Positions 3,731 through 43,817 of a stretch of DNA of 64,000 nt are shown piece by piece. How positions within the stretch are numbered: the first letter of the stretch is position 1; each line of letters starts with the position of its first letter. The position numbers and the translations under genes are program-made. This stretch comes from an uncultured Alphaproteobacteria bacterium (lineage in GTDB: Bacteria > Pseudomonadota > Alphaproteobacteria > Rs-D84): assembly GCA_944389525.1 (NCBI GenBank), contig CALXMR010000003.1, forward strand, positions 2,915-66,914. Direction: 5' to 3'. The notes under the pieces are model-generated. The model ran no database searches. It was not told the origin of the DNA and saw only the letters and a program-made list of their open reading frames with translations.

Positions 3731-6671
3731 ATTGGCATTTATTTGGTGAAAAACTGATCACAACCTTGCGACACGATTCGTTTGGCTTGGTATCAGGTGT
3801 ATTGCATTCGGTTGATCCGACGCCAGACGTCTGTATGTTTGCAGATGGCAGTCCGGCCTGGATTAAGGCATCACCAACAGCCTTGGCCCGATTCTGTGAT
3901 AATGGCATATTTATCTTGTCTGTTCCAGATCTGTCCGTGTGACCGACAACAGTTATACAATAGTTTGTATCACTGCCTTGGGTCGTCTTTACCTGGGTTG
4001 CAAATGTCTTTATTGTTGTTTGGGCCTGTTGTGTTAAATCCGATTTGCCCAGTTCAAATAGGTTTTGTGCAGGCAATATCAGTTGTTCCGGTTCTGGTTG
4101 AGATGGTACAGTCAATTTCTCTAGTGCGCTTTGTATCATGCTTACTTTTACTTCTACACATATACCCTGATCGTTAATTTCATATTTATTAGAAGGACAT
4201 GTGCATTTGTTGTTAACCATATGATATCCATTTATGCATGAACAGGCACCAGTACTGGTATTAACTGTTACATTTGGATCTGTTTGATCGCACTGCACTG
4301 TTACATTGGGCGACAACGTATTGCATGTATTATTTTCCCCAGGTGCCGTTCCTGATGGACATTCACATCCGTTGCCTGTTGTATTTGCAACCTTGGCACC
4401 GGGGCATTGTTCACAGGCGTTTGAATTAGTATTGTATGCATATTTGCTGTTTGTGCAACGGCAATTTGGGAATGTCCCAGTGGAACCAGATGGACAACGA
4501 GCACCAGTTTCGCTGCTGGGCAGTTTCGCCGTATTGTCGCGTAATTTCTTTAGCGGTTCATACTTTGCAATAATTTCATCCGATTGTTCTTTTGGTGCCT
4601 TGTTATTTATAATTAAATTACCAACCATACCACCAACAGCACCAACGCCTGCAATGATTGCTCCAGTTTTTAGTTGTGATGATGTGTCTGCACGCTGTTG
4701 CGCCCATTCGGCGGCATCGGCACCCGTTGGATCAGACAACGCGCGCGACAGTGATGTATATGCACCATCTGTTCGGCCCAGTGATACATCGTCATACAGA
4801 CCCATGGTCGCACTGTCCATTACAACTTCGGATTCTATACCTGGGGCCAGCCCCAAGGCCTCTTTACGCGTTTTTACATCTGTGGACAGGGCAAAAAAGT
4901 CTTGACGAAATTGCAATAGGGTTGCACTAACTGGTAATTGCACATCTGTTTCGCCACCCGCGATATTGCGGCCCGCACCATAGTCACAGCGGAATGTTGC
5001 CAGATATGCCGCCATATCGCGTTCGGCGGCATCATCGGCGCGATTTTCTGCCACCGCAGACGCCAGTTGCATCCCCCCGATACCAGTGGCACCAATCGAC
5101 AGTCCGCCCAATAATTTATTTGCGGTGGATTGTTCTTTCGCTTTCATCGCATCTGCATTCTTTTGCAGTTCGTCTATTTTTTTCTGTGATTCTTCTTCGG
5201 ATAGTGTGGGACGAATACAGCTGCGTTGGTCATCGCTGGGGCGATATTCACCACTGCATTTTTCAATTATGCAAATTTCAGTATTTGTCGTTTCGTCCCA
5301 TTTACGATGCGCTACGGTTGCATGTTCGGGCATAGGATCGCAATCGCCAGAAATTGGGATACATTTGCCATCAGAAGGATTATATCCATCGTCACAGTCT
5401 GTGGCATGGCAAACACCTTTTTTCAATTCGCCTGCCGTTGCGTGTTCAATTGCTGATACCTGTTCGCTGGTACATGGGCCCTCGCTTTTTTTACATGCAG
5501 AACGATTGTCGTTTGGCAGATAGCCCTTTTGGCATGTTTTGATAACACAAACTAATTCATTGTTTATCCATTCGTATTTAGACTTTTTTGCATTTGTATC
5601 GCCAGATGTGCATTCTTTACCAACCTGGTCTTCACACGCATCGCCAATGGTGATTGTTTCGCATTTATCAGTGACTTCACAAAAATCTTCACATGAGCCA
5701 TCTTCACCGGTGGAACCAATACATATTTCTTGCGCGTCTTTTCTGGATTGAACAGAACGTGGATTTGTTAATTTATACCGGTCTGATACACATTGTATTG
5801 GATAGCATTTTTTACTGACGATATCATATGCAAGTGATTTTGAATTAGAGCCCTTTTCTGCAGTGCATACAGTGACAGTCACTTCGTCTATTTGCAGATC
5901 GGCTTCTGCTAATTTTATATCGCCCATGTTGTTATTAGCAGGCACATCAAAAGTCTGTGTTTTATAACCTGTTCGGGAAATTTTTATTTGTGACACAGAA
6001 CCTGGAACCGTTAATGAAAAATTTCCATCTATGTCAGCGGTTATCCCTTTATCTGTGCCCAGGGCAAACACGGCGGCAAATTCAATGGGTTTTTTTGTGA
6101 CAGAACTAATAATACGCCCTGTAATTGTTTTTTCTGTTGTTTCAGATTGATTGTTGGATGTTTCAAGATTTGCGTCTTTTTCTGTTGTAGAAACAGTGTT
6201 TGATTGTGTAGAAGGGGTGCCAGATGTGTTGTTGGTGGTATTACCGCATTCTTCTGCAATTTTTTTGTTTATAAACTGTTCCTCTGCATGGAATGCAATA
6301 AACTTGTCATCCATTTTACCACATACTAGATCCCAGCATTGTTCAGAAACGCATTCACGTAGCGTTTGCCCTTTTTTACATTCATATGTAGTACGAGCAT
6401 AACCAATGGGTTTGCAAGTGCCTTTTGTGTCTCCTGGAAGTGGTGTGTCTAGTTTTTGTTCACATTCTTCATCCTGCTTCTGTTTTAATTCATTATATAT
6501 TTTTTGATAATCTTGATCTTCATCAAAATCGTAAAGAAGATTATACTGGAATCTTATGTCTGATACGCAGTTTTCGTATTCTGAAGATGTTGCTGCCAAT
6601 GCGGGCAGGGTGAATAAAACGGCAAAGATTGTTATTATATAATTTCTTATGCTATTCATTTGTCTTCTCAT
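3729..6671 (-). CDS. Secreted multidomain Cys-rich protein with CarboxypepD_reg-like domain, Gly-rich hydrophobic segments and C-terminal OmpA-like peptidoglycan-binding domain
   Basis: Signal peptide; ITGRII..PIEFAAV..DIDGNFSL..GYKT; C..C..GY.P..C repeats; LFELGKSDL..VGHTDRSG..N..LSQNRA..V. Start overlaps the upstream stop (ATGA). Confidence 0.8.
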   Translation of the reverse strand: MRRQMNSIRNYIITIFAVLFTLPALAATSSEYENCVSDIRFQYNLLYDFDEDQDYQKIYNELKQKQDEECEQKLDTPLPGDTKGTCKPIGYARTTYECKKGQTLRECVSEQCWDLVCGKMDDKFIAFHAEEQFINKKIAEECGNTTNNTSGTPSTQSNTVSTTEKDANLETSNNQSETTEKTITGRIISSVTKKPIEFAAVFALGTDKGITADIDGNFSLTVPGSVSQIKISRTGYKTQTFDVPANNNMGDIKLAEADLQIDEVTVTVCTAEKGSNSKSLAYDIVSKKCYPIQCVSDRYKLTNPRSVQSRKDAQEICIGSTGEDGSCEDFCEVTDKCETITIGDACEDQVGKECTSGDTNAKKSKYEWINNELVCVIKTCQKGYLPNDNRSACKKSEGPCTSEQVSAIEHATAGELKKGVCHATDCDDGYNPSDGKCIPISGDCDPMPEHATVAHRKWDETTNTEICIIEKCSGEYRPSDDQRSCIRPTLSEEESQKKIDELQKNADAMKAKEQSTANKLLGGLSIGATGIGGMQLASAVAENRADDAAERDMAAYLATFRCDYGAGRNIAGGETDVQLPVSATLLQFRQDFFALSTDVKTRKEALGLAPGIESEVVMDSATMGLYDDVSLGRTDGAYTSLSRALSDPTGADAAEWAQQRADTSSQLKTGAIIAGVGAVGGMVGNLIINNKAPKEQSDEIIAKYEPLKKLRDNTAKLPSSETGARCPSGSTGTFPNCRCTNSKYAYNTNSNACEQCPGAKVANTTGNGCECPSGTAPGENNTCNTLSPNVTVQCDQTDPNVTVNTSTGACSCINGYHMVNNKCTCPSNKYEINDQGICVEVKVSMIQSALEKLTVPSQPEPEQLILPAQNLFELGKSDLTQQAQTTIKTFATQVKTTQGSDTNYCITVVGHTDRSGTDKINMPLSQNRAKAVGDALIQAGLPSANIQTSGVGSTECNTPDTKPNESCRKVVISFSPNKCQ

Positions 6672-8395: not shown

Positions 8396-8414
8396 GTTTA
8401 TGTGTATCCATTCG

Positions 8415-10174: not shown

Positions 10175-13100
10175 ATGGTAATGAAGAAATTTATTCAGGC
10201 GTTTTTATTTGCATTGTTTTTGATTCCGTCAACTGCGTTTGTGGCATCGGCGGCGACTGTGAATAATGAATTTATGGTGGCGGCACAGTTATTGTCGGCG
10301 GCAAAAAATGCCGATATTCAACAGGTCCAGGCACTGATTAACAACGGGGCAAATGTTAACTATGTGGACAGCACGGGGCTGTCGCTGGTCTGTACGGCGC
10401 TGATGAATAATGATTTGCGGGCGGCACAAATTTTACAGATGTATGGGGCAGATGCGTCCCAGTGCGACCGCCAGATAAAACAGTACCAGTCGCGAAATTC
10501 CCCCAATACGGACAGTGGGGGACTGTTCAGCGGACTGTCTTCCGCCCAGAATATTGCATTGGCGGCGGCGGGGGCCGCCGTTGTTGTAGGGGGGCTGTTT
10601 TTGCTGACCGATTGGCTGGATCCGGGAAATGAAAATGACAACGGCGGCAGTGGCAGTGGCGGTAACAGACCCGGCCAGGGTGAAAACGGCGGCGGCAGCA
10701 GTGGGGGCGAAGGTTGGGCCAAGGGCGCGTTGCCGTATGGGCCGGCAATGCCAAATGCCACAGAAGAAAGTGCGAAATATTATACCGAACTGGATTATTA
10801 CAGCCCAGATATCACCGTTGATCCTGATGAGCCCAGTGGTGAAGAGTTAGCGGGTGCCGCCATCAGGCAGGAAGTTTTTGATTTGATGACGGATGCGTAT
10901 AAACAAAATTATCTGTTGATGATGCGTGGGTATTCTGCGCTGGCGCGTGGATATATGGGGCAACGGACATTGCGCCGTACGGATAATGCGCCGTTTTCCA
11001 GTGCGGAATTATCACATTACAATATCGGTGATATTGCCGTGACGGGTGGGCGACCAGTGACAGTTGCGCTGATTACAGAAAATGGTATAAATGCCGCGCC
11101 AAAGCCGGCCGGTGAAGATACGGCGCAAATAAACTCGCTGGATGACGAATTGCTGGGGTGGACAACGACAAATGGTAATAATGGGCTAAGCACGGCGCAG
11201 AACAATATGTTGTCCAGCAAATATTATAACAATGTGGTTCAGCTGGGTACGGGCGAAGCAAACCAGATATCTGGCGCGTACACATACGAAGATGGCAGTT
11301 TGGTAAATAATTTTGATTTGTCAGGATTTGGGACGGCGGTAAACAATACATATGCGACAGATGATGATGACTTGTTGGCGAAAATATTGGGCGGCAGTTT
11401 GTCAGGATTTGGAACGGCGGACTTTATCGGATTTATGCCGAATGGCCAGATGCTGGTCTATCGCACAGGTGGTGGTACAGGGCTGGTGCAATTGAAAGAA
11501 CCATCAAATGCAGGCACATATGTTATGAACAATGAAGAAAGCCTGGCCACTGGGGATACATTGAATTTGTTTGGTAAAACATTAACTGTCACCAGAACTG
11601 GAAATCAAATAACCGCGGTCGCAGATGATGAAACAAAATATACGGGCTATATCGGGGCAGACGGATTACTGTATATCGACAGCGCGGCAGATGGTGTTAT
11701 TAACCAGGCATATCAGATGACGGACAATAATCTGATACTGACCAAAGAAACAGGAAAATTGGATTATTTGAATTACAGTGCGCTGAATGATGCTGCATTG
11801 CGGTTTACATCGGGCGATCTGGCTGGTGGCCGATCCCAGCCGTTTATACTGGCTAATGCGTCTGTGATTGACCCGTTGTATGATCGTGGCGCGGCAACGA
11901 TTAATGATGTGTTGAATTTCAGTACCCAAGAAACGCAACAGGCGGGGTTCGCGCTGTACATAAATCAATACTATAATCAAAACAAGGATGATACGACAAA
12001 TCCGGCATCTGATGCGGCAAAGTTCTTTGGCGGGTTGGGGTCCAGTTATTCGCCGTTGGTGATATTTTCAACCGGTGCGTCAGAAACGGACAGTCTGTAC
12101 AGTGGTGCAAATTTAACCGCGACATTTGAAAATTCTGCGCCGTTGGTTTATGACAATTTGGAACGCCTGTTCATGTCAATTGTGCCGGTAATTCAATCTG
12201 GGAATGGTACCAGTGGTACAGACACGGTCAGTGGATATTCCCAGGAAAATAAATATGTCGTTTCGCAGTGGCAAAATACAAATAATACATCTGATACAAC
12301 GAATGATGATACATATTACAAGGGGCGCGTATGTGGCATCGCGGGTACGGGTGCAAATGGTGTTGATCCATGGTGCTTTGCGGCGGCCGGTGTGACCGAT
12401 GAACAGGCTGTGTCTGCGGCGGCTGGGGCGGCCGGGTCGTTAAAGTCGGCGTTCAGTTATATGACGAACAAGGAAATTTTCACCCTGTTGGCGTTGACGG
12501 CGGACGGCGCGTATTTGGCAACGGATTCCAGTGGTAATGCGTTTTCCGAAGATGGATTGGTTTCGTACTTGCAGTCTATGTACCAGATGCCGAACGAGTA
12601 TGAAATGCGCTGGAAAGTGGGCGGTGAAAATTACCTGGATGTGTTCAAGGAAGTCTTTGGATACGGGGTTATAAATCTGGAACGCGCAACAACGCCGGGT
12701 AAAACAATTTATTTCTTTGACGGCAGTGGTAATATCGTATCTGACAGTGGTAATGCATATTGGCGTGCGGCATCAAATACATTGTTCCGGCCGTCTGCGG
12801 TGTTTGGTTCGGGGACATCAACTATCAGTGCGCCGTTCTATGATGTCCTGGAAAGTTTTGATGGGTCGATGCGTCTGCCGCGTGTGTGGGAAAACGAATT
12901 CGCGCTGGGCGCCACGGGGGAACGCGGACTGTATATGGGCGATGTGTTGGGTGAATTTAAAACGCGTGATACAGAACCCCAGCGGGTCGAGTTTGGTAAC
13001 TTTGGTTTTTCTATGGCTGTGTCTGAAAAGCCGTATGCAGATAATCTGAATGGGCTGGATAATATGCGTTTGGATTATGCGCACGGCGATTGGAATTTTG

Positions 13101-13933
13101 CCGCCGGTTTCCAACGGCACTTTACAGATGGCGCATCGCGATTTGATGGGATGACAAATCCGATATTGGGGCTGGCGTCTAATGCAATTATTACGGATGT
13201 AGCGTATAATTCTGGGGCATGGTCGTTTGGGGCGCGCACATTTTCTGGTGCAATCACAGATGAAACCATGCTGGACAGTGACCCGACATTATCGGCGCAA
13301 TATACGCCGGCACAGTTGGGATTGGTCCAGGGGGCACAATCTGATATCGCATGGAACGGTACGCAGTTTGGATTTACTACATCGGTTGGTATGATGCATG
13401 AAACAAATACATTGTTGGGGGCAATGTCGGGCGGATTGTTGGATATGGGCAATGGCGACACGATGTATGTTGATACGGAATTGCGCTGGGCGCCGACAGA
13501 TTTGCTGGCGTTTAAGTTACGGTCAACATTTGCGCGTACAACGGCGGATGCATCGGGGCAATTTATATTGGGAATGACCGATATTGATTCAAATGCCTTT
13601 GCGTTTGGGGTGGATGCCGGTAATTTCAGTTTTGCTGTTGCGGCACCGTTGGCAATCAGCAGCGGTTCAATACAATATCCACATGCAAATTACCAGGTTG
13701 TGGAAACAGATGATGGGCAGTATGATTTGAATGTGACAGATATGTATGTCGCGGATTTAAATTTGCGCCCTGATACGCGTGAGGTTCGATTTACTGGCAC
13801 ATATCGGCATAATTTTGGCGAATTTACCGATGGGGCGGTTGGGTTTATATATCGGGTAAATCCAAACAATACATCTGAATTTGGCAATGAATCCATATTT
13901 ATGATGAAGTTAACGCATCGGTTGGGAATCTAG
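10175..13933 (+). CDS. Large secreted protein: ankyrin repeats + degenerate subtilase (S8)-like domain + C-terminal beta-barrel-like region
   Basis: AAKNAD..LINNGANVNYVD ankyrin motif; CGIA..WCFAAAG..LLALTAD..FGYGVINLERA matches the subtilase C-terminal signature; beta-rich tail. Confidence 0.7.
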   Translation: MVMKKFIQAFLFALFLIPSTAFVASAATVNNEFMVAAQLLSAAKNADIQQVQALINNGANVNYVDSTGLSLVCTALMNNDLRAAQILQMYGADASQCDRQIKQYQSRNSPNTDSGGLFSGLSSAQNIALAAAGAAVVVGGLFLLTDWLDPGNENDNGGSGSGGNRPGQGENGGGSSGGEGWAKGALPYGPAMPNATEESAKYYTELDYYSPDITVDPDEPSGEELAGAAIRQEVFDLMTDAYKQNYLLMMRGYSALARGYMGQRTLRRTDNAPFSSAELSHYNIGDIAVTGGRPVTVALITENGINAAPKPAGEDTAQINSLDDELLGWTTTNGNNGLSTAQNNMLSSKYYNNVVQLGTGEANQISGAYTYEDGSLVNNFDLSGFGTAVNNTYATDDDDLLAKILGGSLSGFGTADFIGFMPNGQMLVYRTGGGTGLVQLKEPSNAGTYVMNNEESLATGDTLNLFGKTLTVTRTGNQITAVADDETKYTGYIGADGLLYIDSAADGVINQAYQMTDNNLILTKETGKLDYLNYSALNDAALRFTSGDLAGGRSQPFILANASVIDPLYDRGAATINDVLNFSTQETQQAGFALYINQYYNQNKDDTTNPASDAAKFFGGLGSSYSPLVIFSTGASETDSLYSGANLTATFENSAPLVYDNLERLFMSIVPVIQSGNGTSGTDTVSGYSQENKYVVSQWQNTNNTSDTTNDDTYYKGRVCGIAGTGANGVDPWCFAAAGVTDEQAVSAAAGAAGSLKSAFSYMTNKEIFTLLALTADGAYLATDSSGNAFSEDGLVSYLQSMYQMPNEYEMRWKVGGENYLDVFKEVFGYGVINLERATTPGKTIYFFDGSGNIVSDSGNAYWRAASNTLFRPSAVFGSGTSTISAPFYDVLESFDGSMRLPRVWENEFALGATGERGLYMGDVLGEFKTRDTEPQRVEFGNFGFSMAVSEKPYADNLNGLDNMRLDYAHGDWNFAAGFQRHFTDGASRFDGMTNPILGLASNAIITDVAYNSGAWSFGARTFSGAITDETMLDSDPTLSAQYTPAQLGLVQGAQSDIAWNGTQFGFTTSVGMMHETNTLLGAMSGGLLDMGNGDTMYVDTELRWAPTDLLAFKLRSTFARTTADASGQFILGMTDIDSNAFAFGVDAGNFSFAVAAPLAISSGSIQYPHANYQVVETDDGQYDLNVTDMYVADLNLRPDTREVRFTGTYRHNFGEFTDGAVGFIYRVNPNNTSEFGNESIFMMKLTHRLGI

Positions 13934-18638: not shown

Positions 18639-19742
18639 TTACCGATTTGTTGGTGCGCCGTTTATCTGGACTGGGATGATAGTTTCTGCGCGTACGGTAT
18701 CCAGTGGGTGTGATTGGAATGCGATATTTGCAAAATCAATCTTGTTCAAATCAATCGAACGCAATGTGCGGTTATACATCGTGTTATAGTACACAACCTT
18801 GTCATGCATGTCGGTGGCAATCGTCCATTGGGTTGCCGATGGCATATTAACTGGTGCGCGGCCAGGCGCGTATTCTGTCCCCAGTGGCACATCAAAATTA
18901 TTCAATATATGAAACGCCTGCATTGCCGAATCGTATGAAGTGTCTTGTTGAATAGAATAGTTCTGTAAAAATGCCGCGCGAACGAATCGCGATGGTGGTG
19001 TAAAATCGCCTGGCAATCCCAAAAATCCAGATCCTGCGCCAAATGCGCGCAGCGTGATTGGCCCAAATTGAACCGGGCCGGCGGTGCCGGGAATCAAATT
19101 GACATAGTTATTCAGATTTCGCAATTGCCATGGATAATCTGGCGAATTGGTCAGCACGCCCAGTTTGCTGTCATATACATTGGCGCGACCGTTTGTGATT
19201 TCGATTATAATCTGGGCACCAGATGCATCTGTCACGCGCCAGTGCGCCGTTGATGCGCGTGGGTCGATACTGGTAACACGAATGTTGTTGATTGCGGCGC
19301 GTACTTGGTCCACCGTAGAAAAACGAGACAGTATCCACGACACCAATTGAAAGTCAGAAATTGTTCGGGCGGCATCGGACGGATTGTATTCTGGATATTG
19401 GCCATAGCCGGGGAAATAAAACAATCCTGCGGACAGGCCGGCTTCGTTCATGCCGTCAACCACCCATCCTGGTTGCACCACTGCCAATCCGACATAGCCA
19501 TACATGCTGGAAAAAGTCAGGCCACCTGTATCACCATTGGGCAGCATTGATTGCTGGATATATCCGCGTGGGACGATGGTGTACATGTTTTCCATTTCTG
19601 ATTCGCCCCATTCAATGGTGCGGGCGGTGACAACGCCGTTGTCTTTGGATTTCAGGGTTATGCCTGTACAGGCGTATGCCCCGTTGGCGCACACGATGCC
19701 GATTAACGCGGCCAGTGCGGAAAATTTTTTTCTGCTCTCCAT
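18639..19742 (-). CDS. Choloylglycine hydrolase / penicillin V acylase family (Ntn hydrolase) with signal peptide
   Basis: Signal peptide then catalytic N-terminal Cys (CTGITL), ART, DGMNEAGLS, VLTNSP, GLPGDFTPPSRFVRA. Confidence 0.92.
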   Translation of the reverse strand: MESRKKFSALAALIGIVCANGAYACTGITLKSKDNGVVTARTIEWGESEMENMYTIVPRGYIQQSMLPNGDTGGLTFSSMYGYVGLAVVQPGWVVDGMNEAGLSAGLFYFPGYGQYPEYNPSDAARTISDFQLVSWILSRFSTVDQVRAAINNIRVTSIDPRASTAHWRVTDASGAQIIIEITNGRANVYDSKLGVLTNSPDYPWQLRNLNNYVNLIPGTAGPVQFGPITLRAFGAGSGFLGLPGDFTPPSRFVRAAFLQNYSIQQDTSYDSAMQAFHILNNFDVPLGTEYAPGRAPVNMPSATQWTIATDMHDKVVYYNTMYNRTLRSIDLNKIDFANIAFQSHPLDTVRAETIIPVQINGAPTNR

Positions 19743-19815
19743 GTCTGTATTGTGGTGCATTTGTTTGACTTTTACCACAGGAAAGATATCGGGTCCGCGC
19801 CCTAAGATGAATGTG

Positions 19816-23050: not shown

Positions 23051-25435
23051 ATGAAAAGACTTGTTGCCGTAATTAGTGGATTGTTGGTTTTACCCGCATT
23101 TGCAGAGGTTGCGCCCGAATATTTCTATCAGGAAATGATGGCGCAATATGCAGCAGAAAATCCAGAGATGGAATTTGTGACAGATTCTGCCACGGACGAA
23201 GTGGCGGATGTGTCAGAGCAGTCTGCAGACACTCAGCCGGTTGTTCCAGTTGTTCCAACCGCGGTCAGTCCGCGTAACACATCTGGTCGTGCGGCAGCGT
23301 CTCGTGCGGTCGCGTCATCAACAACCACATCTGCGCGTAATGTTGCAAATCGCGCAACGGCGGCGACAACGGCGCGTACTGTCTCTGCGCGGCCGGCGGC
23401 GGTGAACACGAAAACAACATCTTCGCGTGCGGCGGTAACGACACCGTCACGTGCGGCGGCATCGCGCACGGCACGGTCTGCATCAAATACGGTGGCCAAT
23501 CGGCCGACAACAACGGTGCGTTCGACAACTGCGTCTGTGCCGGGTGTAACAACGCGTACGGCATCGGCGCAAAAGAATAATTCAAATACGGCACGTGCAT
23601 CAATTGTTCAAACAGATACGGTCAATACCCCATTGTATATCAGTGGTGATACCACCGCACGGGTCAGCACTCGGTCCACGAATGTCAGTGCGCGTGTTCC
23701 GACAATACGCGTGGGGTCAACAACATCAACTGGGACATCTGAAACCAGTACATCGTCAACAATATCTATGGATGAATTGGCCCAGTTAACCGATTATTGC
23801 AAGGCCCAGTATGTTGCGTGTATGGATAATTTCTGCAATGTTCTGGATGACAGCCAGGGGCGTTGCAGTTGCAGTGCGAACCTGGATAATTATGCTGAAA
23901 CCGAAGCGGCGTTGAAGCAGGCAACTGCTGATTTGCAGGAGGTTGCCCAACAGATTCAATACATCGGCCTGACCGCAGAAGAAGTGGAAACATTATTCAC
24001 CCAGACCGAGGCGGAATTGCAAATGCAATCCAGCACGGATAACAGCCAGTTAAAGAATGATTTGGACAAGATAAAAAGTCTGATTGTTGATGTTGAATCT
24101 GGTCGCGCATCATCATCTTCGTCTGGGGGGGTAAGTTTTGATTTGTCGGGTTTGTTGGACTTTACAATCGACAGTACTGGATTTGATTTAGGATCCTTGC
24201 TGGGGATGAGTACCACGGACACCAGCAGTATCAGCAACCAACGTGGTGAAAAATTATATGATACCGCGGCGGCGCGTTGTCGTGCATCTGTATTGAACAG
24301 TTGCCAGGCCCAAGGGGTGGATATAACTGTTATCACAAACGCGTATGATTTGGAAATTGACAAGGCATGTATCGCGTACGAACGTGCCCTGACAGAATCT
24401 AATGATCAAATGGCATCAACGGTTCGCAACGCGAAAAGTGTGTTGCAGCGCGCGCGTCTGTTGGTGGCCCAGCAAAAGAATCAATACGATTTGCGTGGGT
24501 GTGTGACAGAATTAGACAACTGCATGCAAGATGATTTTGTTTGTGGCGATGATTACGAAAACTGTCTGGACCCCAGTGGTAAATTCATTGTTAACGGCGA
24601 AATTGTCGTGGGCAGTGAACCGGGCGCCCCGGGTGATGCTCTTGCGGCGATATATGACGCATGGGAATATACCAAGTCGAGCGGCGCTGGTTCCACAATA
24701 TATAATGCATGGGGGTTAAGTTCTTCGGATACGGACAACAAAGTATCTGCGGGTACGCTGGCGGACTATATTGCAGAAACGGTTACCAGTTCTGTGCCAT
24801 CGGGAACCTCGACCGACATGTCAAAGTTCTTGCAGAACAAAATCGGTTATCATGATGATGGGGACGGCAAAAACTATGGTATGTGCATCGCGGTGCTGAA
24901 TCGTTGCCAGGATCTGACATACGAAGGTACCGGCCAAAACAAGAAATATATACCAAACAATAATGTTATCAAAGAATACCTGAACCGTACATTAGTGCAA
25001 ATCAAATCTGCCCAGGATACAATTCTGGCCGATTATGCAGAAGACTGTATTACGGATGTGGCATCGTGTCTGACCCAGAATAACTATGATCCAGATGGGG
25101 GGGCTGGACAGATAGAATGGATTTATAACGGTGACTTGTGGTTCGAAACTGAAGGTGGGAGGTGTGGCCCGTTGTCATCACAGCAGACATTATTTGAACA
25201 TTTAGGCAATGCTGGTTTTGGGCTGTATAGTGCCGAAGGATGCCCGGAAGAAAAAGAGGTTAAGCTAAACGATGTTATACGGGTATCAACTGTGTCTGCG
25301 GCTAATATGGTTGCGATGCGCGCATGTAACCCAGTAATAACAACTTGTATGAGTGTTAATGGTGTTGAAAAGTCTGACGATTTTGATACATCGTTAACCC
25401 AGGCTGTCTGGATTCAACAGGTAATGGGAAATTAA
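23051..25435 (+). CDS. Secreted Cys-rich helical protein (novel paralogue family) with S/T/R/A-rich linker
   Basis: Signal peptide; CKAQYVACMDNFC..RCSCS; GEKLY..C; CGDDYENC. Confidence 0.8.
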   Translation: MKRLVAVISGLLVLPAFAEVAPEYFYQEMMAQYAAENPEMEFVTDSATDEVADVSEQSADTQPVVPVVPTAVSPRNTSGRAAASRAVASSTTTSARNVANRATAATTARTVSARPAAVNTKTTSSRAAVTTPSRAAASRTARSASNTVANRPTTTVRSTTASVPGVTTRTASAQKNNSNTARASIVQTDTVNTPLYISGDTTARVSTRSTNVSARVPTIRVGSTTSTGTSETSTSSTISMDELAQLTDYCKAQYVACMDNFCNVLDDSQGRCSCSANLDNYAETEAALKQATADLQEVAQQIQYIGLTAEEVETLFTQTEAELQMQSSTDNSQLKNDLDKIKSLIVDVESGRASSSSSGGVSFDLSGLLDFTIDSTGFDLGSLLGMSTTDTSSISNQRGEKLYDTAAARCRASVLNSCQAQGVDITVITNAYDLEIDKACIAYERALTESNDQMASTVRNAKSVLQRARLLVAQQKNQYDLRGCVTELDNCMQDDFVCGDDYENCLDPSGKFIVNGEIVVGSEPGAPGDALAAIYDAWEYTKSSGAGSTIYNAWGLSSSDTDNKVSAGTLADYIAETVTSSVPSGTSTDMSKFLQNKIGYHDDGDGKNYGMCIAVLNRCQDLTYEGTGQNKKYIPNNNVIKEYLNRTLVQIKSAQDTILADYAEDCITDVASCLTQNNYDPDGGAGQIEWIYNGDLWFETEGGRCGPLSSQQTLFEHLGNAGFGLYSAEGCPEEKEVKLNDVIRVSTVSAANMVAMRACNPVITTCMSVNGVEKSDDFDTSLTQAVWIQQVMGN

Positions 25436-35967: not shown

Positions 35968-36060
35968 CGTTTCTTTGCCTTTTATTTTATCAAAATTTTT
36001 TATGCGTGGCAATATTGTATTTATGATAACCCCATTGTTGTGCTAGTCCCTGTGTCGTCA

Positions 36061-38574
36061 TCAACCACTGGTGGACGGGTTTTCTGTATCAGAATCATCT
36101 TTTTCTGCGCAATATCCCCACTTTGTATTTGCCCCCGTTTCATCATAGAAGTATTTATATAAAGTACCTGTGCTGGAACCGTCAGATTTCCATTGCGTGT
36201 CAAACCATGTCCCGCCCAGCCTCTCGCATTCAGTCGACAAGACTTTTGCCATTTCTACCTTGACCGAGTCCATGACCGAATTGACATCCCCCATAACTTC
36301 TGCTGGAATTTCTATTTCCCCATTGGTAATTTTTTCTGAATCCGATGGACGAACACAAACCTGGGTTGCATAGCGTACTACTTTTTGATATAAACTGCCG
36401 GCATAATCTGGCCCACAGTCAAATTCTGGTTCTGTTATAAGCGGGGCAGATGTTCCGCCAGGGCAATTTGCATCGGCCAGCCCCGAGACTGCATCACATT
36501 TCAGACACATATTGTTAAACTTGCCGGCTGCTTCGGCACCTAAAAGAATTTTTGCGTTTCCATCCGCTGTGTTTTCATCTTTGTATGCCAGAACATATCC
36601 TTGTTTGCATTCATAATAGGCGCGTATTTTTGGTTCGCAATAGTAACCATTGCTTGTGGGATATTGTGTGTTGTCAATATTGATGTCAGATGTGTTGAAT
36701 GTCATAGACAATGCATTACATTGCCAGCGGTCAGCATATATTTGATCGCCAGGGGCGTATACACGGCATCCATATGGGTATGCGTGCAGACTGTCATTAC
36801 TGGGGACTTTGCAAGTGTCTTGGACAAAGCTTTCCAATAATGTGTGGCATTCTTTGACAATTTTTTGATCGGTGATTTCATGCATCGCTGCTATTAATAA
36901 GTCCAGACCACTGCCATTCGGGTCGCCGTACAAATTGCTGCAGGCGTACAATTTTTCCTCACATAATTCTTCGGATAATTCCAGACGCGATCCCGTCAGT
37001 AATTCTTCTTTGATATTACTAAAATCTTTCAGTGATTCATTTTGTTCATCGTAACAGGTGTTAACGACAGCCAGACATTCATTTTTGACATCGCGAATTT
37101 TTTCTTGTTGGCCCTGGTATATTTCGACAATTGCCTGGCGAACAAATTCATCCCATACCTCGTCTGCGATATCGCGACATGTTTCCAGACCGCGCGCGGC
37201 ATAAATTCGTTTGTTGTTTAATTCAGAAACAATTAAACGGTTGGTGGCGTTTGTTAAAACATCGCCATCTAATGATATCTGGTATTCCAGTTGATAAAAG
37301 TCTGGGGAATAAATCGGTTCGCCAGTATCACGATTTAAGTATCTGCCGGTTACATCCAGGCAATGAACATAGTTGGGCCCACATGCCGTTTCGGCGGTTA
37401 TGTCGGTGCGAACCTGGGCAATACAGTCATTAATTGATGTTGAATTGTGGGCATTATAATTTTCCAGACGCGCCACATTCATTTCGCGTTCGGTATCACG
37501 GATAGAACTGTTGGCCTGGACCAGTTGGGAATCCAGTGCGTTCAACAGGGTTGTGCAATCATTTTCAATATACATCCCATATGCAGATATTACCATGTTT
37601 AATGTGGATTGTGATGGGCAGTTAGATGCGATTAAATCCACACACTGTGAATGAACCGCATTGTACAATGATTCGCCGGTCAGGTTCGCGATGTTTTCAC
37701 CCGATGCTAAATTCGTTGTTGCCCATATTTGGTTTATGTCGCCCGCGATATCTAATGTCCCCAGTGTTGATAACGCCTGGGATTTAGTGGAAGACAAAAC
37801 CGCGCTGATGCCGGCCAATGTTTGTGCCGATTGTGAATCGTCTTCGGTTATGGCCAGTTCACCTTCGCTGGCGGATAGCATGGCATTAACCTCGGTCGCG
37901 GTTTTGGGGATAACTTCGATATTTAAATTTTTAAAGTCGGTTAACTGATCGGCGGTTTGCCCCAGTGCGCGTTCACGATTTTGGACATCGGTCAGACGTG
38001 ATGAACATATGCAACGGCGATAAGAATCATTCATGGTCGCACAAAACTGATCCATACATGTAAAGTATGCATCACGACAAATGTTATATTCTGTGCCGAA
38101 TGTGTTTGTGACAGATGCCGGTGCAACGGTTGTGGCGCGTGGTGAACGTGCCACGCGCGCAGATGACACAGATTGGCGTGGGGCCGCACTGCGAACAACC
38201 GACTTGTTTGTGGTACCCCGTGATTTTGTGGTATTCCCCGTTATGCCGGTGCGCGACGATGTGATTGCATTCGCACTGCGGGCAGATGTCGGGGGGGCAG
38301 ATGTAGACGTGTTGGTTGCATTGTGTGCAGATATTCCACTGCGTGCAACGGTTGTGCGCGCGTTGCGCGATGATGATGTATCAGATTGCGAAATAGATGT
38401 TCGGTTTGATGATACGCTGCGTACAGGTGGGGTGGTTGTGCCACGTGAAACCACGGATGTGGTATTAGTGCTACCAGACTGATTTCGGGATATGGATTTT
38501 GAATCACGAACAGCAGCATCGGCATGCATGATGCCAATGCAACACATCAGTGTAAAAAGTAAAATCCTTTTCAT
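36061..38574 (-). CDS. Secreted Cys-rich helical protein (novel paralogue family) with S/T/R-rich linker
   Basis: Signal peptide; CRDAYFTCMDQFC..RCICS; GESLY..C; CGPNYVHC. Confidence 0.8.
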   Translation of the reverse strand: MKRILLFTLMCCIGIMHADAAVRDSKSISRNQSGSTNTTSVVSRGTTTPPVRSVSSNRTSISQSDTSSSRNARTTVARSGISAHNATNTSTSAPPTSARSANAITSSRTGITGNTTKSRGTTNKSVVRSAAPRQSVSSARVARSPRATTVAPASVTNTFGTEYNICRDAYFTCMDQFCATMNDSYRRCICSSRLTDVQNRERALGQTADQLTDFKNLNIEVIPKTATEVNAMLSASEGELAITEDDSQSAQTLAGISAVLSSTKSQALSTLGTLDIAGDINQIWATTNLASGENIANLTGESLYNAVHSQCVDLIASNCPSQSTLNMVISAYGMYIENDCTTLLNALDSQLVQANSSIRDTEREMNVARLENYNAHNSTSINDCIAQVRTDITAETACGPNYVHCLDVTGRYLNRDTGEPIYSPDFYQLEYQISLDGDVLTNATNRLIVSELNNKRIYAARGLETCRDIADEVWDEFVRQAIVEIYQGQQEKIRDVKNECLAVVNTCYDEQNESLKDFSNIKEELLTGSRLELSEELCEEKLYACSNLYGDPNGSGLDLLIAAMHEITDQKIVKECHTLLESFVQDTCKVPSNDSLHAYPYGCRVYAPGDQIYADRWQCNALSMTFNTSDINIDNTQYPTSNGYYCEPKIRAYYECKQGYVLAYKDENTADGNAKILLGAEAAGKFNNMCLKCDAVSGLADANCPGGTSAPLITEPEFDCGPDYAGSLYQKVVRYATQVCVRPSDSEKITNGEIEIPAEVMGDVNSVMDSVKVEMAKVLSTECERLGGTWFDTQWKSDGSSTGTLYKYFYDETGANTKWGYCAEKDDSDTENPSTSG

Positions 38575-38683: not shown

Positions 38684-38935
38684 TTATTTCGTGTTTTGTT
38701 CGGTGGTACTTGGGCGATTTCGTTCAACAAATGTTATGCGGCCCTTGTCCAAATCGTACGGTGTCATTTCAACGCGAACATGTTCACCAACATTGACCCA
38801 TATGCGCAACTTGCGCATTTTGCCACATACCGTTGCCAAAATTTCGTGCCCATTTTCCAGTCTTACCCGGAACATAGTATTGGGTAATTTGTCTTCTACG
38901 ACACCAGAAAAAACAATCACATCGTCTTTTGCCAT
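38684..38935 (-). CDS. infA: Translation initiation factor IF-1
   Basis: [38 protein letters not shown]. Confidence 0.96.
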
Positions 38936-39076
38936 TATTATCCTCTGTATTTACTGCGAAAAAATTCTAGGCTAATGATATTATTTTGTAAAATGTAAAG
39001 CAAGTTGTTTTTATGTGCTTGCACATGTTGGTGGGTTTTGATAGAATTATAGGTAAATATATGTAGGGTGGGCGTT

Positions 39077-41224
39077 ATGAAATTACATGTTGTTTTAGCA
39101 ATATTGATGTCGTTACCAATGACTGCCATGGCAGTCAGTCGGGATGGTGCGGTGGTACGTGTTGGCGCCAGTCGCGCAAACCAGGTTGGGGCCCGTATGC
39201 CCAGTATGGTCGCGGGTACAACCCAAATGGTGGTAAACACACCAACAACGGTAAATCCTACATTGTCAACAAACCCCAGTGGTGCTGGAACGTCGGGTGG
39301 TGGATCAGATGCGGGTGGCGACAGTGGTGGCGCGACAACATCGGAAAGTTGTCGTGATGCGTATCGTGCATGTATGGATGAATTTTGTTTGCTGGATGAA
39401 TCCGAAGGGTACAGATGTGCATGTTCGTCTAATATAGAGCAATCAAAATCATTGATTCAGGAAATCCAAGAAATCCAAGAAAAAGCGGATCTGTTATATA
39501 CCGAAGGGGTGGAACGCGAACAATTGGGGGCCCAGGCAAAATTAGTCTTTGGCGAGAGTGAGGCCGCGCAAAAAAGTTCGCGTATATCTGGTATTAGTTT
39601 TTCAGCTTGGATAAACAGTGATTCTAGTGATGTAGATGCTGGTTTGGGGGCCGATGCAGATATTGGTGATGGTTTGTATGCAATGGCGGCGGAATTTTGT
39701 GCCAACCGTCTGGATGCGTGTGGTGATGATGCCGAAATGGAAGAAATGCTGTATGCACGTCAAATTGTTCAGGATTGTAAATCTTATGAAACATATTTAA
39801 AAGATCAAAAATCAATTGCGGAATCTAATAAACGCACGGCCGAGGCTGCGGTACGCCAGGCGCGTTTGCAAATGTTGGACACGACAAACAAATATAATCG
39901 TGGCGAATGTTTGTTGGCGTATCGTTCGTGTATCGCGGACAAGGGTGGTTGCGGCGTAAATTTTGAAAACTGTTTGGATGCTGATTTGTTGCAACGCCGC
40001 GCAAATGCGTGCGAAAATGTTCTGGACCAGTGTATGGCGGTGCGTGAATATGTTCTGGCTGACTGGGCCGAAGAATCAGAAAGTATTTTGGCCGAAGCGG
40101 CCAAATATGCCGACAGAAATGCGCGTGCAACGTGTCTGGCGCGGATTCAGTTGTGTCTGGAAGACAGTTGTTCTACGGAAACAAATTCGGCATGCTTGAC
40201 CGATGTTAATGTTGCGGCGGGAATTTGTCCGGTTATTACAGAATGCGAAGAAATGATTCCAGGTATTCAGGCTGTTGTAAATGACAAGTTGGGATATTTG
40301 CGGACACAGTTTTGTCAGAATGATGTCGATGCCTGTTTGCGCGACAGATGTGGTGAAAACTTTACCGCGCCGGAATGTCTTGGTAAAAGTGCGCTGGAAA
40401 TAGCGGCCATGTGTCCCCAGAGTATGTTCCCATCGTGCAAAACCGAAACACAATTTGATATTATTGTCCAGGCGGCCATGCTGCAAATGGATTATCAAAT
40501 GTTACAGGGATGCCTGAACTATTTCGGTGAAAGATTGGGTGCGGTTTGCGGAACGGATATGTCGTGTTTGCCCACGGATACATTGACCGCATCATTGGTT
40601 GAAATCCCCGAAGACCAGGCGGAGCTGGCGACATTGCGTGAAACGGTTCGTGCAAATACAGAAAATGCGGTTAATGAATTCTTTGAACAGTTTGAGCAGG
40701 ATAAAACCGTTGCCGCATGTCAGGACAGTCAAAAGCCATCTGATCGTGAAAGTCTGGGTGATAGTGTGTTTAACACTGCAAAGATGATTGCACAAATCGG
40801 GGCGGAAAATCGTGCCATGCGCGAACTGGAAACCAAGATTGCAGAATTATCACGCCAGCAAGATCTGGAAGAGGCAGAACAAAACTGTTATAACACATAC
40901 CAGGTTGAAACCCCAGACGAATCCAGCAAGAATTATAGTTATATCCGCAGTGTGTCATGGGAGCCGTCATTGCGTAACTGCCATGTGTGCCGCATGCAAC
41001 AGGTGTGCGAAACAGGTGGCCAGTCCAAGGGTGCGGCCGGTGTCCAGGGCTTGGCCGGTGGTTTGTCGGCGGGGGCCGCGGCTGGTACCATGGTAACCCC
41101 GGGTTGGGGTACTGCGATTGGTGCGGTCGTCGGCGGAATTGGCGGATTCATTGCGGGCCAGTCCGCGGGCGGTGAAGAGGAATTCTGTCAGGAAATTGAA
41201 TCTTGCGAAGATATTAATATGTAA
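39077..41224 (+). CDS. Secreted Cys-rich helical protein (novel family) with C-terminal glycine zipper
   Basis: Signal peptide; CRDAYRACMDEFC..RCACS; CGVNFENC; GLAGGLSAGAAAG..GTAIGAVVGGIGG; ends CEDINM. Confidence 0.8.
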   Translation: MKLHVVLAILMSLPMTAMAVSRDGAVVRVGASRANQVGARMPSMVAGTTQMVVNTPTTVNPTLSTNPSGAGTSGGGSDAGGDSGGATTSESCRDAYRACMDEFCLLDESEGYRCACSSNIEQSKSLIQEIQEIQEKADLLYTEGVEREQLGAQAKLVFGESEAAQKSSRISGISFSAWINSDSSDVDAGLGADADIGDGLYAMAAEFCANRLDACGDDAEMEEMLYARQIVQDCKSYETYLKDQKSIAESNKRTAEAAVRQARLQMLDTTNKYNRGECLLAYRSCIADKGGCGVNFENCLDADLLQRRANACENVLDQCMAVREYVLADWAEESESILAEAAKYADRNARATCLARIQLCLEDSCSTETNSACLTDVNVAAGICPVITECEEMIPGIQAVVNDKLGYLRTQFCQNDVDACLRDRCGENFTAPECLGKSALEIAAMCPQSMFPSCKTETQFDIIVQAAMLQMDYQMLQGCLNYFGERLGAVCGTDMSCLPTDTLTASLVEIPEDQAELATLRETVRANTENAVNEFFEQFEQDKTVAACQDSQKPSDRESLGDSVFNTAKMIAQIGAENRAMRELETKIAELSRQQDLEEAEQNCYNTYQVETPDESSKNYSYIRSVSWEPSLRNCHVCRMQQVCETGGQSKGAAGVQGLAGGLSAGAAAGTMVTPGWGTAIGAVVGGIGGFIAGQSAGGEEEFCQEIESCEDINM

Positions 41225-41261
41225 ACCTGGGGACAGTGGCATATTGACACAGGGGGAGGGG

Positions 41262-43817
41262 ATGAAATATAAACTGATTTTTGGAACAGTCGTTTGTGGG
41301 GTCGCGTTGATTGCGGCGGCGGATTTGTACGGCGCGGCCAGCACCAAACGCCAGTCTGCAATTCAACAGGGAACAACCGTTCGTACGAAAATAGAAGCGG
41401 CCGGACTGTACGACCAGGCGTGTTATGATGCGTACTTTGGTTGTATGGATCAGTTTTGTATAACTGATAACGCCAGTGGTGGGGCATGCACATGCAGTGA
41501 TAATATTGCCGAATATGACAAAGAGTATGATGCAATCCAAGATATCTTGGCACAGGCGAATATTTTGCGTACCGAAGAAGTGGAACGGGTCAAGGCTGGC
41601 GCGGATGCGGATATTATATTCACAGGTGAACGCCGTTATGATGCAGATGGAAATATCTTGGATGAAGGTGAATTAACGGAAGAAGAAGAAAAAGAACAGC
41701 GGCGTGCAAGTTTGCTGGCCATGTTTAACACCAGTATTTATGATGACGATGATGAACTGGAATCGTCTGTTACCAGTATGGCGGATATGATGGGTGACGA
41801 ATTATATCAGGCGGCCGACGAAATGTGCACTAACCAAATTCCTGATTCGTGTTCAGAAGATTTAGCATTCTTGCGTCAGTTATACACCCGGCAAATAACG
41901 TCCGACTGTTTGGGTTATAAAAACTCTCTGGCTCAGCAACGCGCCACTGCCGAAGCGGATCTGGCCGCGGCTGAATCCGAAGTGCGTGCGGCACTGCAAG
42001 AAAGTTTGGAAAGCGCGAATAAGTATGATTTAGGTCAGTGCATGGTCGAATTTAGAAAATGTATGCAGACCACTGACGCGTGTGGTGAAAATTGGGAAAA
42101 TTGTGTTGCGACAATCGCGTCAGAAAATATGCAAAATAATGTTGCGGTCAGTACGGCGGGAACAACCGCGGAATCTGTGGATACATATGACATAACTGCG
42201 TCAACAATGGAAATCTTGAATAGCAAGAGACCGATTTGTGAAAACATTTTGGATCAGTGTGTTGCGGTGCGGGACCAGGTGTGGCCAAATTTCCTGCGCG
42301 AGGCGGCGCCAACAATTCGTGTCGCAGAATCCCAGGCGGAATCAAAATTCCGGCAGTCGTGTTTGGGGGATATTTCTGATTGTATTCAGACCGCGTGTCG
42401 TGATGATATCGCCGGCAAAGGGGTCGCAACAATGGATGCCTGTTTGGCACGGCCCGATATGGCGCGCAGTTTTTGCAAGGTCGAAATCGATCCGTGCGAA
42501 AGAATGGAACCACAAATTTGGGACTATGTCGTAGACAAGTTGGCGGCAATGCGTGTTGATGCATGTACCCAAGAAGTCAAAGATTGCTTTACCGCGGATA
42601 CACGCTGTGGGCCGAATTTTGAAAACTGTATCGGTATGGATTATGACTATATCCACGATATTTGTCCGATTGACACATTGGTTGTTTGTAAACAGGATAA
42701 TCCTAATTTCTCGATGGATGATCTGGACAGCATGTTAATGGGCCTGTATTTGAATATCGATAACGCAATGATGACCCAGTGTCAAAATCTGGTTGATACA
42801 AAGATGGCAGAAATTTGTGGCAGTACATCTGATTGTAATCGTTTCGCAGCAGATGATACAATTGGTACAGGATCTGTGCGTAGCCAAAAGGATGGTGATG
42901 TCTATCGTGTAACGGGAATGATTTCGTTTGGCAGTATTAAGATGGGCAGTGCGTCTGGGACCGATCGTACAATCGACAGCGAAGGCAAGACGGTAACATT
43001 GGCACCTGGTGAAATTGGGGTCGAAGAGTATTTGGCCAAGATACGTGAAAATAATGCGTCTGTTCCGAACGCAGAAGCGATTATTTCTTCGATAGAAGAA
43101 GAATTGAATAATATCGCTGGTACGATTAATCGCACAATAGAAATGATAGAAAGTGACCCAGAAATTCAATATTGTGTTACTGGGCGCAGTCTGGAACAAA
43201 TTACCGGTGAAAAAGGGGCGTCAACCGAAGGGCGGTTCCCGAATCTGTTGAACCAGGTTAAAATGCAAATCGCGGTGGCGGCATTGCGCCAGGCTCAGGA
43301 TAATTATAATAATAAGTTAAACCAGGCTATTGCCGATGCAACAAAGGATGCATCAGCCGATTTGGCACAGTATATGTGTCAAATGTTGCCAGTTACAGGT
43401 GGAGCTGTTCTGGGGGGCTTGGATGTAGATACGCCTTTGACGGCACCGTATGCAATCAGTTACGATGTTGGAACTGGTTTGGATAATACTTTGTTGGCCC
43501 AAGGTGGCCGAGGTGGTGGTGCGGTTAGTGGTAATGCAACCATGGATACGACTGCGGGAACCAGTCAGGCTGCTGAAATCATAAATTCGTTTACTGGTTT
43601 GGGTTCAAATCGTGTCAAGATAGATTTGCCCAGTGGTACGCGTGAAATGTGGTCTTTGTTTAATCGGGAAACACGTACATGCCATTATTGTACGTCTACG
43701 ATTACAAAATCATGTGAATCAATCAGTAAAAAAGGATTCTTGGGCATTGGGGCAAAAAACGAATTGAAATGTACAGAATCCGAGCCTGTGGAAAAGTGTG
43801 AAGATATTGTGATGTAG
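41262..43817 (+). CDS. Secreted Cys-rich helical protein (novel family)
   Basis: RBS GGAGG; signal peptide; CYDAYFGCMDQFC..ACTCS; CGENWENC; ends CEDIVM. Confidence 0.8.
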   Translation: MKYKLIFGTVVCGVALIAAADLYGAASTKRQSAIQQGTTVRTKIEAAGLYDQACYDAYFGCMDQFCITDNASGGACTCSDNIAEYDKEYDAIQDILAQANILRTEEVERVKAGADADIIFTGERRYDADGNILDEGELTEEEEKEQRRASLLAMFNTSIYDDDDELESSVTSMADMMGDELYQAADEMCTNQIPDSCSEDLAFLRQLYTRQITSDCLGYKNSLAQQRATAEADLAAAESEVRAALQESLESANKYDLGQCMVEFRKCMQTTDACGENWENCVATIASENMQNNVAVSTAGTTAESVDTYDITASTMEILNSKRPICENILDQCVAVRDQVWPNFLREAAPTIRVAESQAESKFRQSCLGDISDCIQTACRDDIAGKGVATMDACLARPDMARSFCKVEIDPCERMEPQIWDYVVDKLAAMRVDACTQEVKDCFTADTRCGPNFENCIGMDYDYIHDICPIDTLVVCKQDNPNFSMDDLDSMLMGLYLNIDNAMMTQCQNLVDTKMAEICGSTSDCNRFAADDTIGTGSVRSQKDGDVYRVTGMISFGSIKMGSASGTDRTIDSEGKTVTLAPGEIGVEEYLAKIRENNASVPNAEAIISSIEEELNNIAGTINRTIEMIESDPEIQYCVTGRSLEQITGEKGASTEGRFPNLLNQVKMQIAVAALRQAQDNYNNKLNQAIADATKDASADLAQYMCQMLPVTGGAVLGGLDVDTPLTAPYAISYDVGTGLDNTLLAQGGRGGGAVSGNATMDTTAGTSQAAEIINSFTGLGSNRVKIDLPSGTREMWSLFNRETRTCHYCTSTITKSCESISKKGFLGIGAKNELKCTESEPVEKCEDIVM

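Follow-up and report, generated by a model that had tools for sequence, protein, structure and literature searches.

The DNA analysed here, referred to throughout as the window, is a 64,000-nucleotide (nt) stretch of contig CALXMR010000003.1 from an uncultured alphaproteobacterium of the lineage Rs-D84. It carries six genes for putatively secreted, cysteine-rich proteins of predicted helical fold that belong to a larger family, and our analysis suggests that this family forms part of the bacterial envelope. The proteins are named P0001 to P0006, in the order of their open reading frames (ORFs) at positions 6668, 8415, 23051, 36061, 39077 and 41262:

6668..8395, minus strand: P0001, 575 residues
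8415..9281, minus strand: P0002, 288 residues, compact and predicted all-helical, with 20 cysteines in the mature part
23051..25435, plus strand: P0003, 794 residues, with a signal peptide, a linker, a putatively cysteine-stapled helical core and a variable C-terminal region
36061..38574, minus strand: P0004, 837 residues, with the same layout as P0003
39077..41224, plus strand: P0005, 715 residues, a predicted helical rod followed by a C-terminal cysteine-clamped β module
41262..43817, plus strand: P0006, 851 residues, beginning 37 nt downstream of P0005 on the same strand

An earlier note on this DNA had described the six genes as secreted paralogues without a named family. All six reading frames are indeed open, and each protein begins with a hydrophobic segment that may act as the proposed signal or anchor, with Kyte-Doolittle peaks at residues 11–42 in P0001, 1–30 in P0002, 1–25 in P0003, 1–23 in P0004, 1–24 in P0005 and 1–29 in P0006. 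The four large proteins P0003–P0006 share the ordered motif series that had been reported for them. The element C-x3-Y-x2-CMD-x-FC-x9-CxCS comes first, and the core strings quoted for it (CKAQYVACMDNFC, CRDAYFTCMDQFC, CRDAYRACMDEFC and CYDAYFGCMDQFC) are all found in the sequences. The later modules G-x2-LY-x6-C, Y-x3-I-x3-C and C-x6-C..CG-x2-Phi-x2-C follow in the same order and form invariant columns in a four-way alignment. These proteins find one another by phmmer with E-values from 1e-9 to 1e-53, the nearest paralogue of P0005 being P0006 (E 5e-53).

P0001 and P0002 match only themselves by phmmer. We built profiles from the orthologues of each and compared them profile to profile with hhalign. 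P0002 aligns with the family profile over 192 columns (86% probability, E 4.9e-6) and P0001 aligns equally well with P0002 (86%, E 4.7e-6), while P0001 against the family profile reaches 49.5% (E 1.7e-4). The 288-residue protein, described earlier as a compact version of the family, is thus a distant compact relative; P0001, said earlier to share the later modules, is linked well to P0002 and weakly to the family itself. The unit C-x6-C..CG occurs twice in P0001 and once in P0002. Because of these phmmer, hhalign and motif results, the original observation stands at the level of sequence, with the four large proteins as clear paralogues and P0001 as the weakest link.

The building plan recurs among the members. 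Most carry a linker between signal peptide and core that is rich in Ser, Thr and Arg and poor in acidic residues. In P0003 this linker spans ~220 residues and is also rich in Ala; in P0004 it contains 41% Ser plus Thr, 11% Arg and 1% Asp plus Glu. Judged by composition, the linker is nearly private to the family: a 70-residue window of this kind occurs in 12 ORFs of the genome, and 9 of these are family members. P0001 consists, in order, of a signal peptide, a Thr-rich linker, the cysteine-helical core, a conserved Gly-rich hydrophobic segment (residues 374–392), a charged linker and small cysteine-rich repeats. P0006 ends in a cysteine clamp like that of P0005 but is devoid of the long Gly hairpin described below.

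The genome measures 920,960 bp in 13 contigs and is rated 97% complete, which bears out the description of it as small. The count of six genes at three loci was too low: we find 16 family ORFs on seven contigs, which together occupy 34,854 nt, or 3.8% of the genome. Nine of them contain the N-terminal motif, five more were added by phmmer (two of these being fragments at contig ends), and P0001 and P0002 complete the set. Operon-like pairs of members are present, in agreement with the arrangement in operons suggested before. Counted over all ORFs of the genome, the unit C-x6-C..CG-x2-[FYWM]..C appears 14 times, 13 times within family members; shuffled ORFs contain it 0.5 times on average and at most twice. 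Cysteine makes up 2.1–7.1% of the family ORFs, against a mean of 1.36% for 392 ORFs of at least 300 residues, a comparison set that includes some non-coding frames.

Sequence searches returned no named relative. Neither Pfam, scanned at E-values up to 1, nor NCBIfam gave a match above cut-off for the six window proteins, and profiles searched against PDB sequences found nothing below E 0.09. Searching 1.84 billion representative proteins with a profile yielded 1018 matches at E ≤0.001, including 576 at E ≤1e-30, and the N-terminal motif is present in 141 of the best 150 of these 1018 representatives. A word-indexed search gave 1025 matches, and the 120 matches listed all lack both a name and a Pfam domain. 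The label 'hypothetical protein' is all that the few named homologues of P0001 and P0002 carry, and the ESM Atlas contains no usable match to the P0005 core. A description of the family was not found in the full texts searched on Enterousia and Rs-D84, and the motif strings CMDQFC, CMDEFC and CMDNFC are absent from the full-text literature searched. Like these sequence searches, the fold searches described next gave no confident match to a characterised family, so the proteins form a diverged paralogue family without a named relative in Pfam, NCBIfam, PDB sequences or fold libraries, as the earlier note had supposed.

We predicted the structure of P0005 (residues 85–715) with AlphaFold2 from an alignment of 111 sequences. 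The model strings together long helices, the longest of 53 residues, and closes with a small β module; the mean predicted local distance difference test (pLDDT) is 82.4, with 354 of the 631 residues at 90 or above, and the predicted template modelling score (pTM) is 0.45. The P0002 model contains only helices (pLDDT 75.2). These confident long-helix rods agree with the helical nature ascribed to the proteins. Foldseek searches against PDB and BFVD gave nothing at E ≤0.001. VIA-align against 48,161 chains reached at best Z 8.3 for P0005, to a designed coiled coil, and 6.2 for P0002; all matches are generic helices, and helical models typically reach Z 13–14 as noise with this program. The predicted models are best taken to show a new or unassignable fold, and not a relative of a toxin, fusogen or secretion subunit. 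The earlier suggestion of pore formation or membrane fusion gains no specific support, since the Foldseek and VIA-align matches to such proteins are generic helical ones (the α-helical pore-forming toxin AhlB, 6h2f_F, scores E 4.9 and TM 0.14 in Foldseek).

Part of the text of PMC8035907 gives Candidatus Enterousia as the name for GTDB genus Rs-D84, whose family and order share that name. Bacteria of this group are reported to have genomes below 1 Mb, to lack amino acid, nucleotide and lipid biosynthesis and to have neither a respiratory chain nor standard transporters, and are predicted to live as obligate symbionts or parasites; this one study to analyse such genomes mentions only 'hypothetical membrane-bound proteins' (PMC12306168). 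Relatives of P0005 come from public genomes from the guts of chickens, people, ruminants, mice, rabbits and termites. The window also encodes a choloylglycine (bile salt) hydrolase family protein (18639–19778, minus strand; PF02275, E 9e-64), in keeping with life in the gut.

The family profile matched all 24 other genomes of the genus (7–24 matches each). Of 16 genomes that represent five further families of the order, 14 were matched (1–9 matches each), but none of 298 genomes sampled elsewhere in the class Alphaproteobacteria. The family is therefore, as far as these sequences tell, specific to the order Rs-D84 and greatly expanded in Candidatus Enterousia. An N-terminal core tree of 159 sequences was built from nine of eleven own members, the other two being too poorly covered, together with the 150 best-scoring among the 1018 representatives. 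In it, seven of the nine own paralogues are each the sole own copy in a clade of representatives, with clade sizes of 40, 32, 26, 25, 21, 10 and 3, the P0003 clade holding 26 of the 150; the remaining two stand alone. With one own paralogue per clade, the paralogues appear to be old, and most have orthologues of their own.

Orthology across genomes gives the same picture. An orthologue of P0004 with 48–68% identity is present in 22 of the 24 genus genomes, and of the other two one is 70% complete and one has a partial match; P0004-like matches mostly number four per genome. P0002 has one or two matches in each of 13 other genus genomes and two sister-genus genomes sampled. P0005 is the most conserved large member, with 65–89% identity among 80 loci kept of 206. 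The order P0004/P0005/P0006 is repeated in at least six genomes. Phosphoglycerate kinase (PGK) from the genomes used for P0004 is 60–88% identical, so the family evolves faster than a housekeeping enzyme and yet is stable in number. The conserved orthologous set that the earlier note had asked for thus exists, and the profile search of the kind that it had proposed gave no match in the 298 genomes sampled outside the order. Contigs of two runs, one labelled transcriptomic and one metatranscriptomic, match P0004 and P0005, with 1–2 differences in 204–277 bases and with 18 in 511; these are a weak hint of expression, as contigs reveal neither level, strand nor transcript ends and uncovered stretches of the genes carry no information.

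A cysteine-rich multigene family with variable C-termini could also be a set of variable antigens directed against host immunity or phage, interchangeable coats like the variant-specific surface proteins (VSPs) of Giardia and the variant surface glycoproteins (VSGs) of trypanosomes. Weak VIA-align matches to a trypanosome invariant surface protein and Borrelia surface proteins (Z 5.6–6.2) point the same way. We consider this very unlikely: copy number and orthology are stable across species, gene order is conserved, and the RNA-library contigs of a single run match two different members.

The cysteines of the family are numerous and regularly placed. The core has 16 conserved cysteine columns, 18 in one branch, and the cysteine count after residue 30 is even in 123 of 146 representatives that start with Met. 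The window also encodes the membrane-anchored DsbA proposed as the source of the disulfides:

49783..50616, minus strand: DsbA-like thiol oxidase, membrane-anchored through N-terminal hydrophobic segments (PF01323, E 1.8e-20)

This protein is a candidate maker of disulfides in the family, which the sequences make likely. DsbB and VKOR, which would re-oxidise DsbA, were not found in the 97%-complete genome of this anaerobe, which belongs to a group without a respiratory chain (PMC12306168). Together with the reducing gut lumen, this would suit cysteines that bind metal or buffer redox state in place of forming structural disulfides. The even counts argue for pairing, as do the i/i+7 spacing along helices, the lack of His/Cys clusters and CxxCH motifs in the six sequences, and export by a signal peptide in a cell that has DsbA; a metal or redox role is the least probable of the explanations we considered.

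P0001 departs from the even counts. Counted from beyond residue 40, the cysteine total is odd in all 40 of its orthologues, and the helical core of P0001 itself holds 15, among them the invariant Cys345. One cysteine may therefore be unpaired and, as a guess from the sequences, free for an intermolecular bond. A parity count in the P0002 alignment (23 even, 15 odd) depended on a crude N-terminal cut and was not used.

Two features would tie members of the family to the envelope:

3729..6671, minus strand: P0517, 980 residues, secreted and cysteine-rich, operon partner of P0001 and P0002
41015..41176, plus strand: glycine-zipper two-helix hairpin of P0005, residues 647–700, flanked by CHxC..C and C..C

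P0517 has a CarboxypepD_reg-like domain and a C-terminal OmpA peptidoglycan-binding domain in Pfam, as well as EGF-like cysteine repeats and Gly-rich hydrophobic helices. The P0001 stop and the P0517 start overlap by 4 nt, and P0002 is the first gene of this three-gene operon-like unit, whose order P0002-P0001-P0517 is retained in all five genomes checked. We also compared P0517 with the P0001 profile as a possible family member, and rejected it at 0.5% probability in hhalign. In the 939-residue public protein P0431, a P0001-like N-terminal half (69% identity) is fused to a P0517-like C-terminal half (53% identity) that includes the OmpA domain.

The P0005 hairpin is a 54-residue Gly/Ala-rich stretch with two GxxxG-rich helices joined by a PGWG turn, and the flanking cysteine motifs lie on β strands. 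It is conserved in 21 of 21 orthologues aligned. A hydropathy peak falls within it (residues 675–698), where the AlphaFold2 confidence is low. Six of ten C-termini scanned gave a sub-threshold match to Gly-zipper_Omp or Gly-zipper_YMGG (E ≤0.1). The signal of P0005 ends in ...PMTAMA/VSRD, without the Cys at +1 that a lipobox requires. Pfam and the sequences themselves revealed no β-barrel, lipobox or other known outer-membrane route in the six proteins; the autotransporter barrel PF03797 had no match in them, and the same model finds both neighbouring Pmp genes.

We commit to an envelope role for the family, as its sequences indicate. Within that role we tentatively favour, at somewhat less than even confidence, a fixed set of rods, stapled by disulfides, that would lie at the outer membrane and in the periplasm and together make up a multi-component part of the envelope. 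Because of the OmpA-domain partner and its fusion, the P0005 hairpin and the absence of an outer-membrane translocation domain from every member, the data point to a periplasm-facing scaffold tied to the outer membrane at least as well as to a surface organelle. The component set would be fixed rather than fluid, given the one-paralogue clades, the orthology of P0004 and P0002 and the repeated order of P0004, P0005 and P0006. Its paralogues may form the hetero-oligomer that the earlier note had suggested.

Several observations weigh against this scaffold. The P0431 fusion is a single protein cluster on two contigs, and an assembly artefact or a deletion could have produced it. The glycine zipper stays below the Pfam cut-offs (20.6 versus 28.9 bits for Gly-zipper_YMGG and 20.3 versus 25 for Gly-zipper_Omp). 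The low pTM values (0.45 and 0.39) leave the overall helix arrangement uncertain. For the disulfides, the missing DsbB and VKOR count on the same side, and cysteine covariation, tried as a proof of pairing, carries little weight, since columns 244 and 315 (both present in 85 and both absent in 74 of the 159 sequences) reflect a single change on the tree. P0004 evolves faster than PGK, as surface proteins often do. Finally, when the 22 longest homologues were scanned, 6 had Listeria-Bacteroides repeats behind the core, and one of these six also an ephrin-receptor-like cysteine repeat; such modules are typical of extracellular adhesins and fit a surface location better.

The last points suggest surface-exposed fibrillar adhesins, in which a cysteine-stapled stalk would cross or stand on the outer membrane and present a variable C-terminal head to mucus, epithelium or microbes. 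The EGF-like cysteine repeats in the organism's own paralogues point to a surface role too, Pmp adhesin-type autotransporters are encoded next to family members, and the basic N-terminal segment is reminiscent of chlamydial OmcB in its role as a heparin-binding adhesin (as given in an excerpt of PMC2229832). The folded, oxidised protein would leave the cell through type II or type IV-filament machinery, for which the genome has the following sets, in addition to two TolC-like proteins:

contig C1 2527-5237: secretin and TcpQ-like neighbour
contig C1 121898-124187: GspE/PilB-like ATPase and GspF/PilC-like platform

The two sets represent machinery of the type IV filament or type II secretion kind, retained in a genome of 0.92 Mb. 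With secretin, ATPase and platform genes at hand, an export route for folded proteins is conceivable, though these genes are unlinked to those of the family and the secretin system resembles a type IVb pilus set. The family proteins have no lipobox, β-barrel, sorting signal or known anchor; the operon and the OmpA-domain fusion place at least P0001 in the periplasmic compartment; and the paralogue number is stable. We regard adhesins as the main rival of the scaffold, at a somewhat lower probability.

The hairpin that would hold P0005 in the outer membrane could instead enter a foreign one. The proteins would then be effectors whose glycine-zipper or amphipathic segments insert into the membrane of a partner or host and form pores or junctions for nutrient uptake. 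Uptake through cell-cell connections has been suggested for these bacteria (PMC12306168). Besides the conserved hairpin, Pfam scans gave matches below threshold to Bacteriocin_IIc and the P22 gp7 ejection protein, and fold searches gave weak likenesses to phage ejection or internal virion proteins and to saposin-like proteins. The latter involve P0002 residues 143–214 and lie within the helical noise (3s63_B, Z 5.3, 67 residues aligned; 1l9l_A, Z 5.0, 60 residues aligned). All these resemblances stay at noise level, with Foldseek E >0.1 and VIA-align Z ≤8.3; hydrophobic Gly-rich segments occur only in P0005, P0001 and one other paralogue, and stable sets of ~16 one-to-one orthologues are rare for toxin-like effectors. 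Inserting effectors are improbable on this evidence. A bolder form, which we hold to be decidedly improbable, makes the paralogues the parts of a novel disulfide-stapled helical apparatus of the envelope, by which a bacterium with almost no biosynthesis of its own would attach to a second cell and open a passage, the P0005 hairpin serving as the inserting tip. If true, this would be an episymbiont feeding device independent of those proposed for Patescibacteria.

Returning to the envelope scaffold, from the family, its orthology, gene order, predicted fold and partner domains we infer export, oxidation by DsbA, anchoring, membrane side and any assembly as follows. First, the signal peptide, recognised as an N-terminal hydrophobic segment, would carry each protein across the inner membrane. 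In the periplasm, the paired cysteines would be oxidised, probably by the anchored DsbA. The repeated Cx6C..CGxxPhixxC helical hairpins, whose fold is confidently predicted, would then be stapled by putative disulfides into stiff rods. The basic, Ser/Thr/Arg-rich N-terminal segment, presumably disordered, would act as a tether that holds the rods in the envelope; P0005 would be fixed by a glycine-zipper hairpin like those of SlyB and YfgH, and the rods of the P0002-P0001 operon through their partner with its peptidoglycan-binding OmpA domain. The variable C-terminal modules may give each paralogue its own role. The net function of this scaffold would likely be to stabilise the envelope mechanically and to organise it, in a bacterium reliant on other cells.

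The genes adjoining family members encode two Pmp-type autotransporters, OmpA-family proteins, PagL, a Protochlamydia Pom-like porin and LpxB. The Pmp autotransporters, which are of the Chlamydia type, form a tandem pair beside P0004 (29449-35218, plus strand), and the porin, of the Protochlamydia Pom family, adjoins another paralogue (contig C3 76690-78204). Pmp and Pom-type proteins together amount to a Chlamydia-like set of outer-membrane proteins in an alphaproteobacterium. Further along the window is a possible operon partner of P0004:

35251..36012, minus strand: secreted protein of 253 residues with 10 cysteines, 48 nt downstream of P0004 on the same strand

This protein has no Pfam match. 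A secreted protein of 1252 residues (10175-13933, plus strand) shows a single ankyrin repeat match close to the N-terminus. It also contains a Gly/Ser-rich stretch, and its long C-terminal part, to which nothing could be assigned, may be a β-barrel. Beyond P0006, on the other strand, a MotA/ExbB-like multi-pass protein without a Pfam match (45514-46278, minus strand) lies upstream of a 370-residue protein (44369-45481) that combines an N-terminal membrane helix, a coiled coil of ~200 residues and an OmpA_C domain; the two look like a stator pair of the MotAB or ZorAB kind.

The proteins described here probably constitute an undescribed family and, on the predicted models, a new fold class of chained Cx6C..CG helical hairpins. 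Members of the order Rs-D84, including Candidatus Enterousia, are uncultured; they occur widely in bird, ruminant, rodent, human and termite guts and are predicted to live off other cells (PMC12306168). Because 3.8% of a 0.92-Mb genome is spent on the family and its orthologous set is stable in the genus, it is very likely central to this host-dependent lifestyle. Its members offer targets for antibodies, for cryo-electron tomography correlated with fluorescence in situ hybridisation, and for metaproteomics. If the family is merely a structural one of the envelope, its description is a useful annotation and no surprise; a convergence with the disulfide-linked envelope of chlamydiae is a further possibility.

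Several known systems resemble the family in part. Trypanosome VSGs and invariant surface glycoproteins (ISGs) and the outer surface proteins of Borrelia are long disulfide-containing helical bundles, as predicted here, and come in multigene families; their VIA-align matches (Z 5.6–6.2) are within helical noise, and the present family is stable and orthologous rather than switching. In the mitochondrial intermembrane space, twin-Cx9C (CHCH) proteins use cysteine pairs of fixed spacing to staple an antiparallel helical hairpin after export into an oxidising compartment. The family differs from them in its Cx6C spacing with a CGxxPhixxC partner and in the chaining of units into rods of 600–1100 residues, and the six proteins have no Pfam match to the CHCH type. 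SlyB and YfgH are described, in the portions of the literature consulted, as lipoproteins with a glycine-zipper domain that stabilise the outer membrane. Like these proteins and the Rickettsia 17-kDa antigen, P0005 has a GxxxG-rich helix pair, here with a tight PGWG turn. In contrast to such lipoproteins, P0005 has no lipobox, its cysteine-clamped hairpin sits at the C-terminus of a 715-residue rod, and only some paralogues carry one.

The nearest known system in working principle, by analogy, is the disulfide-cross-linked chlamydial outer membrane complex with OmcB and OmcA. To our knowledge, OmcB is not a long-helix rod protein, and a Pfam scan of the six proteins up to E 1 returned none of the chlamydial outer membrane protein families. 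With no homology and a fold predicted to differ in kind, the family is therefore not a member of the chlamydial cysteine-rich proteins. The likeness lies in the design: each bacterium is host-dependent and has a reduced genome, the envelope proteins are rich in cysteine and exported by Sec (putatively so here), a basic N-terminal segment precedes a cysteine-rich body, and both genomes encode Pmp-type autotransporters, here accompanied by the Protochlamydia Pom-like porin. The chlamydial proteins depend on DsbA, according to excerpts of PMC6752827 and PMC2229832, and the family may do so as well. Intermolecular cross-linking is a feature of the chlamydial complex; the sole hint of it in the family is the odd cysteine count of all 40 P0001 orthologues. 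Where Chlamydia has two such proteins, the alphaproteobacterium has 16 paralogues, predicted to be all-α rods, in a cell that has peptidoglycan genes.

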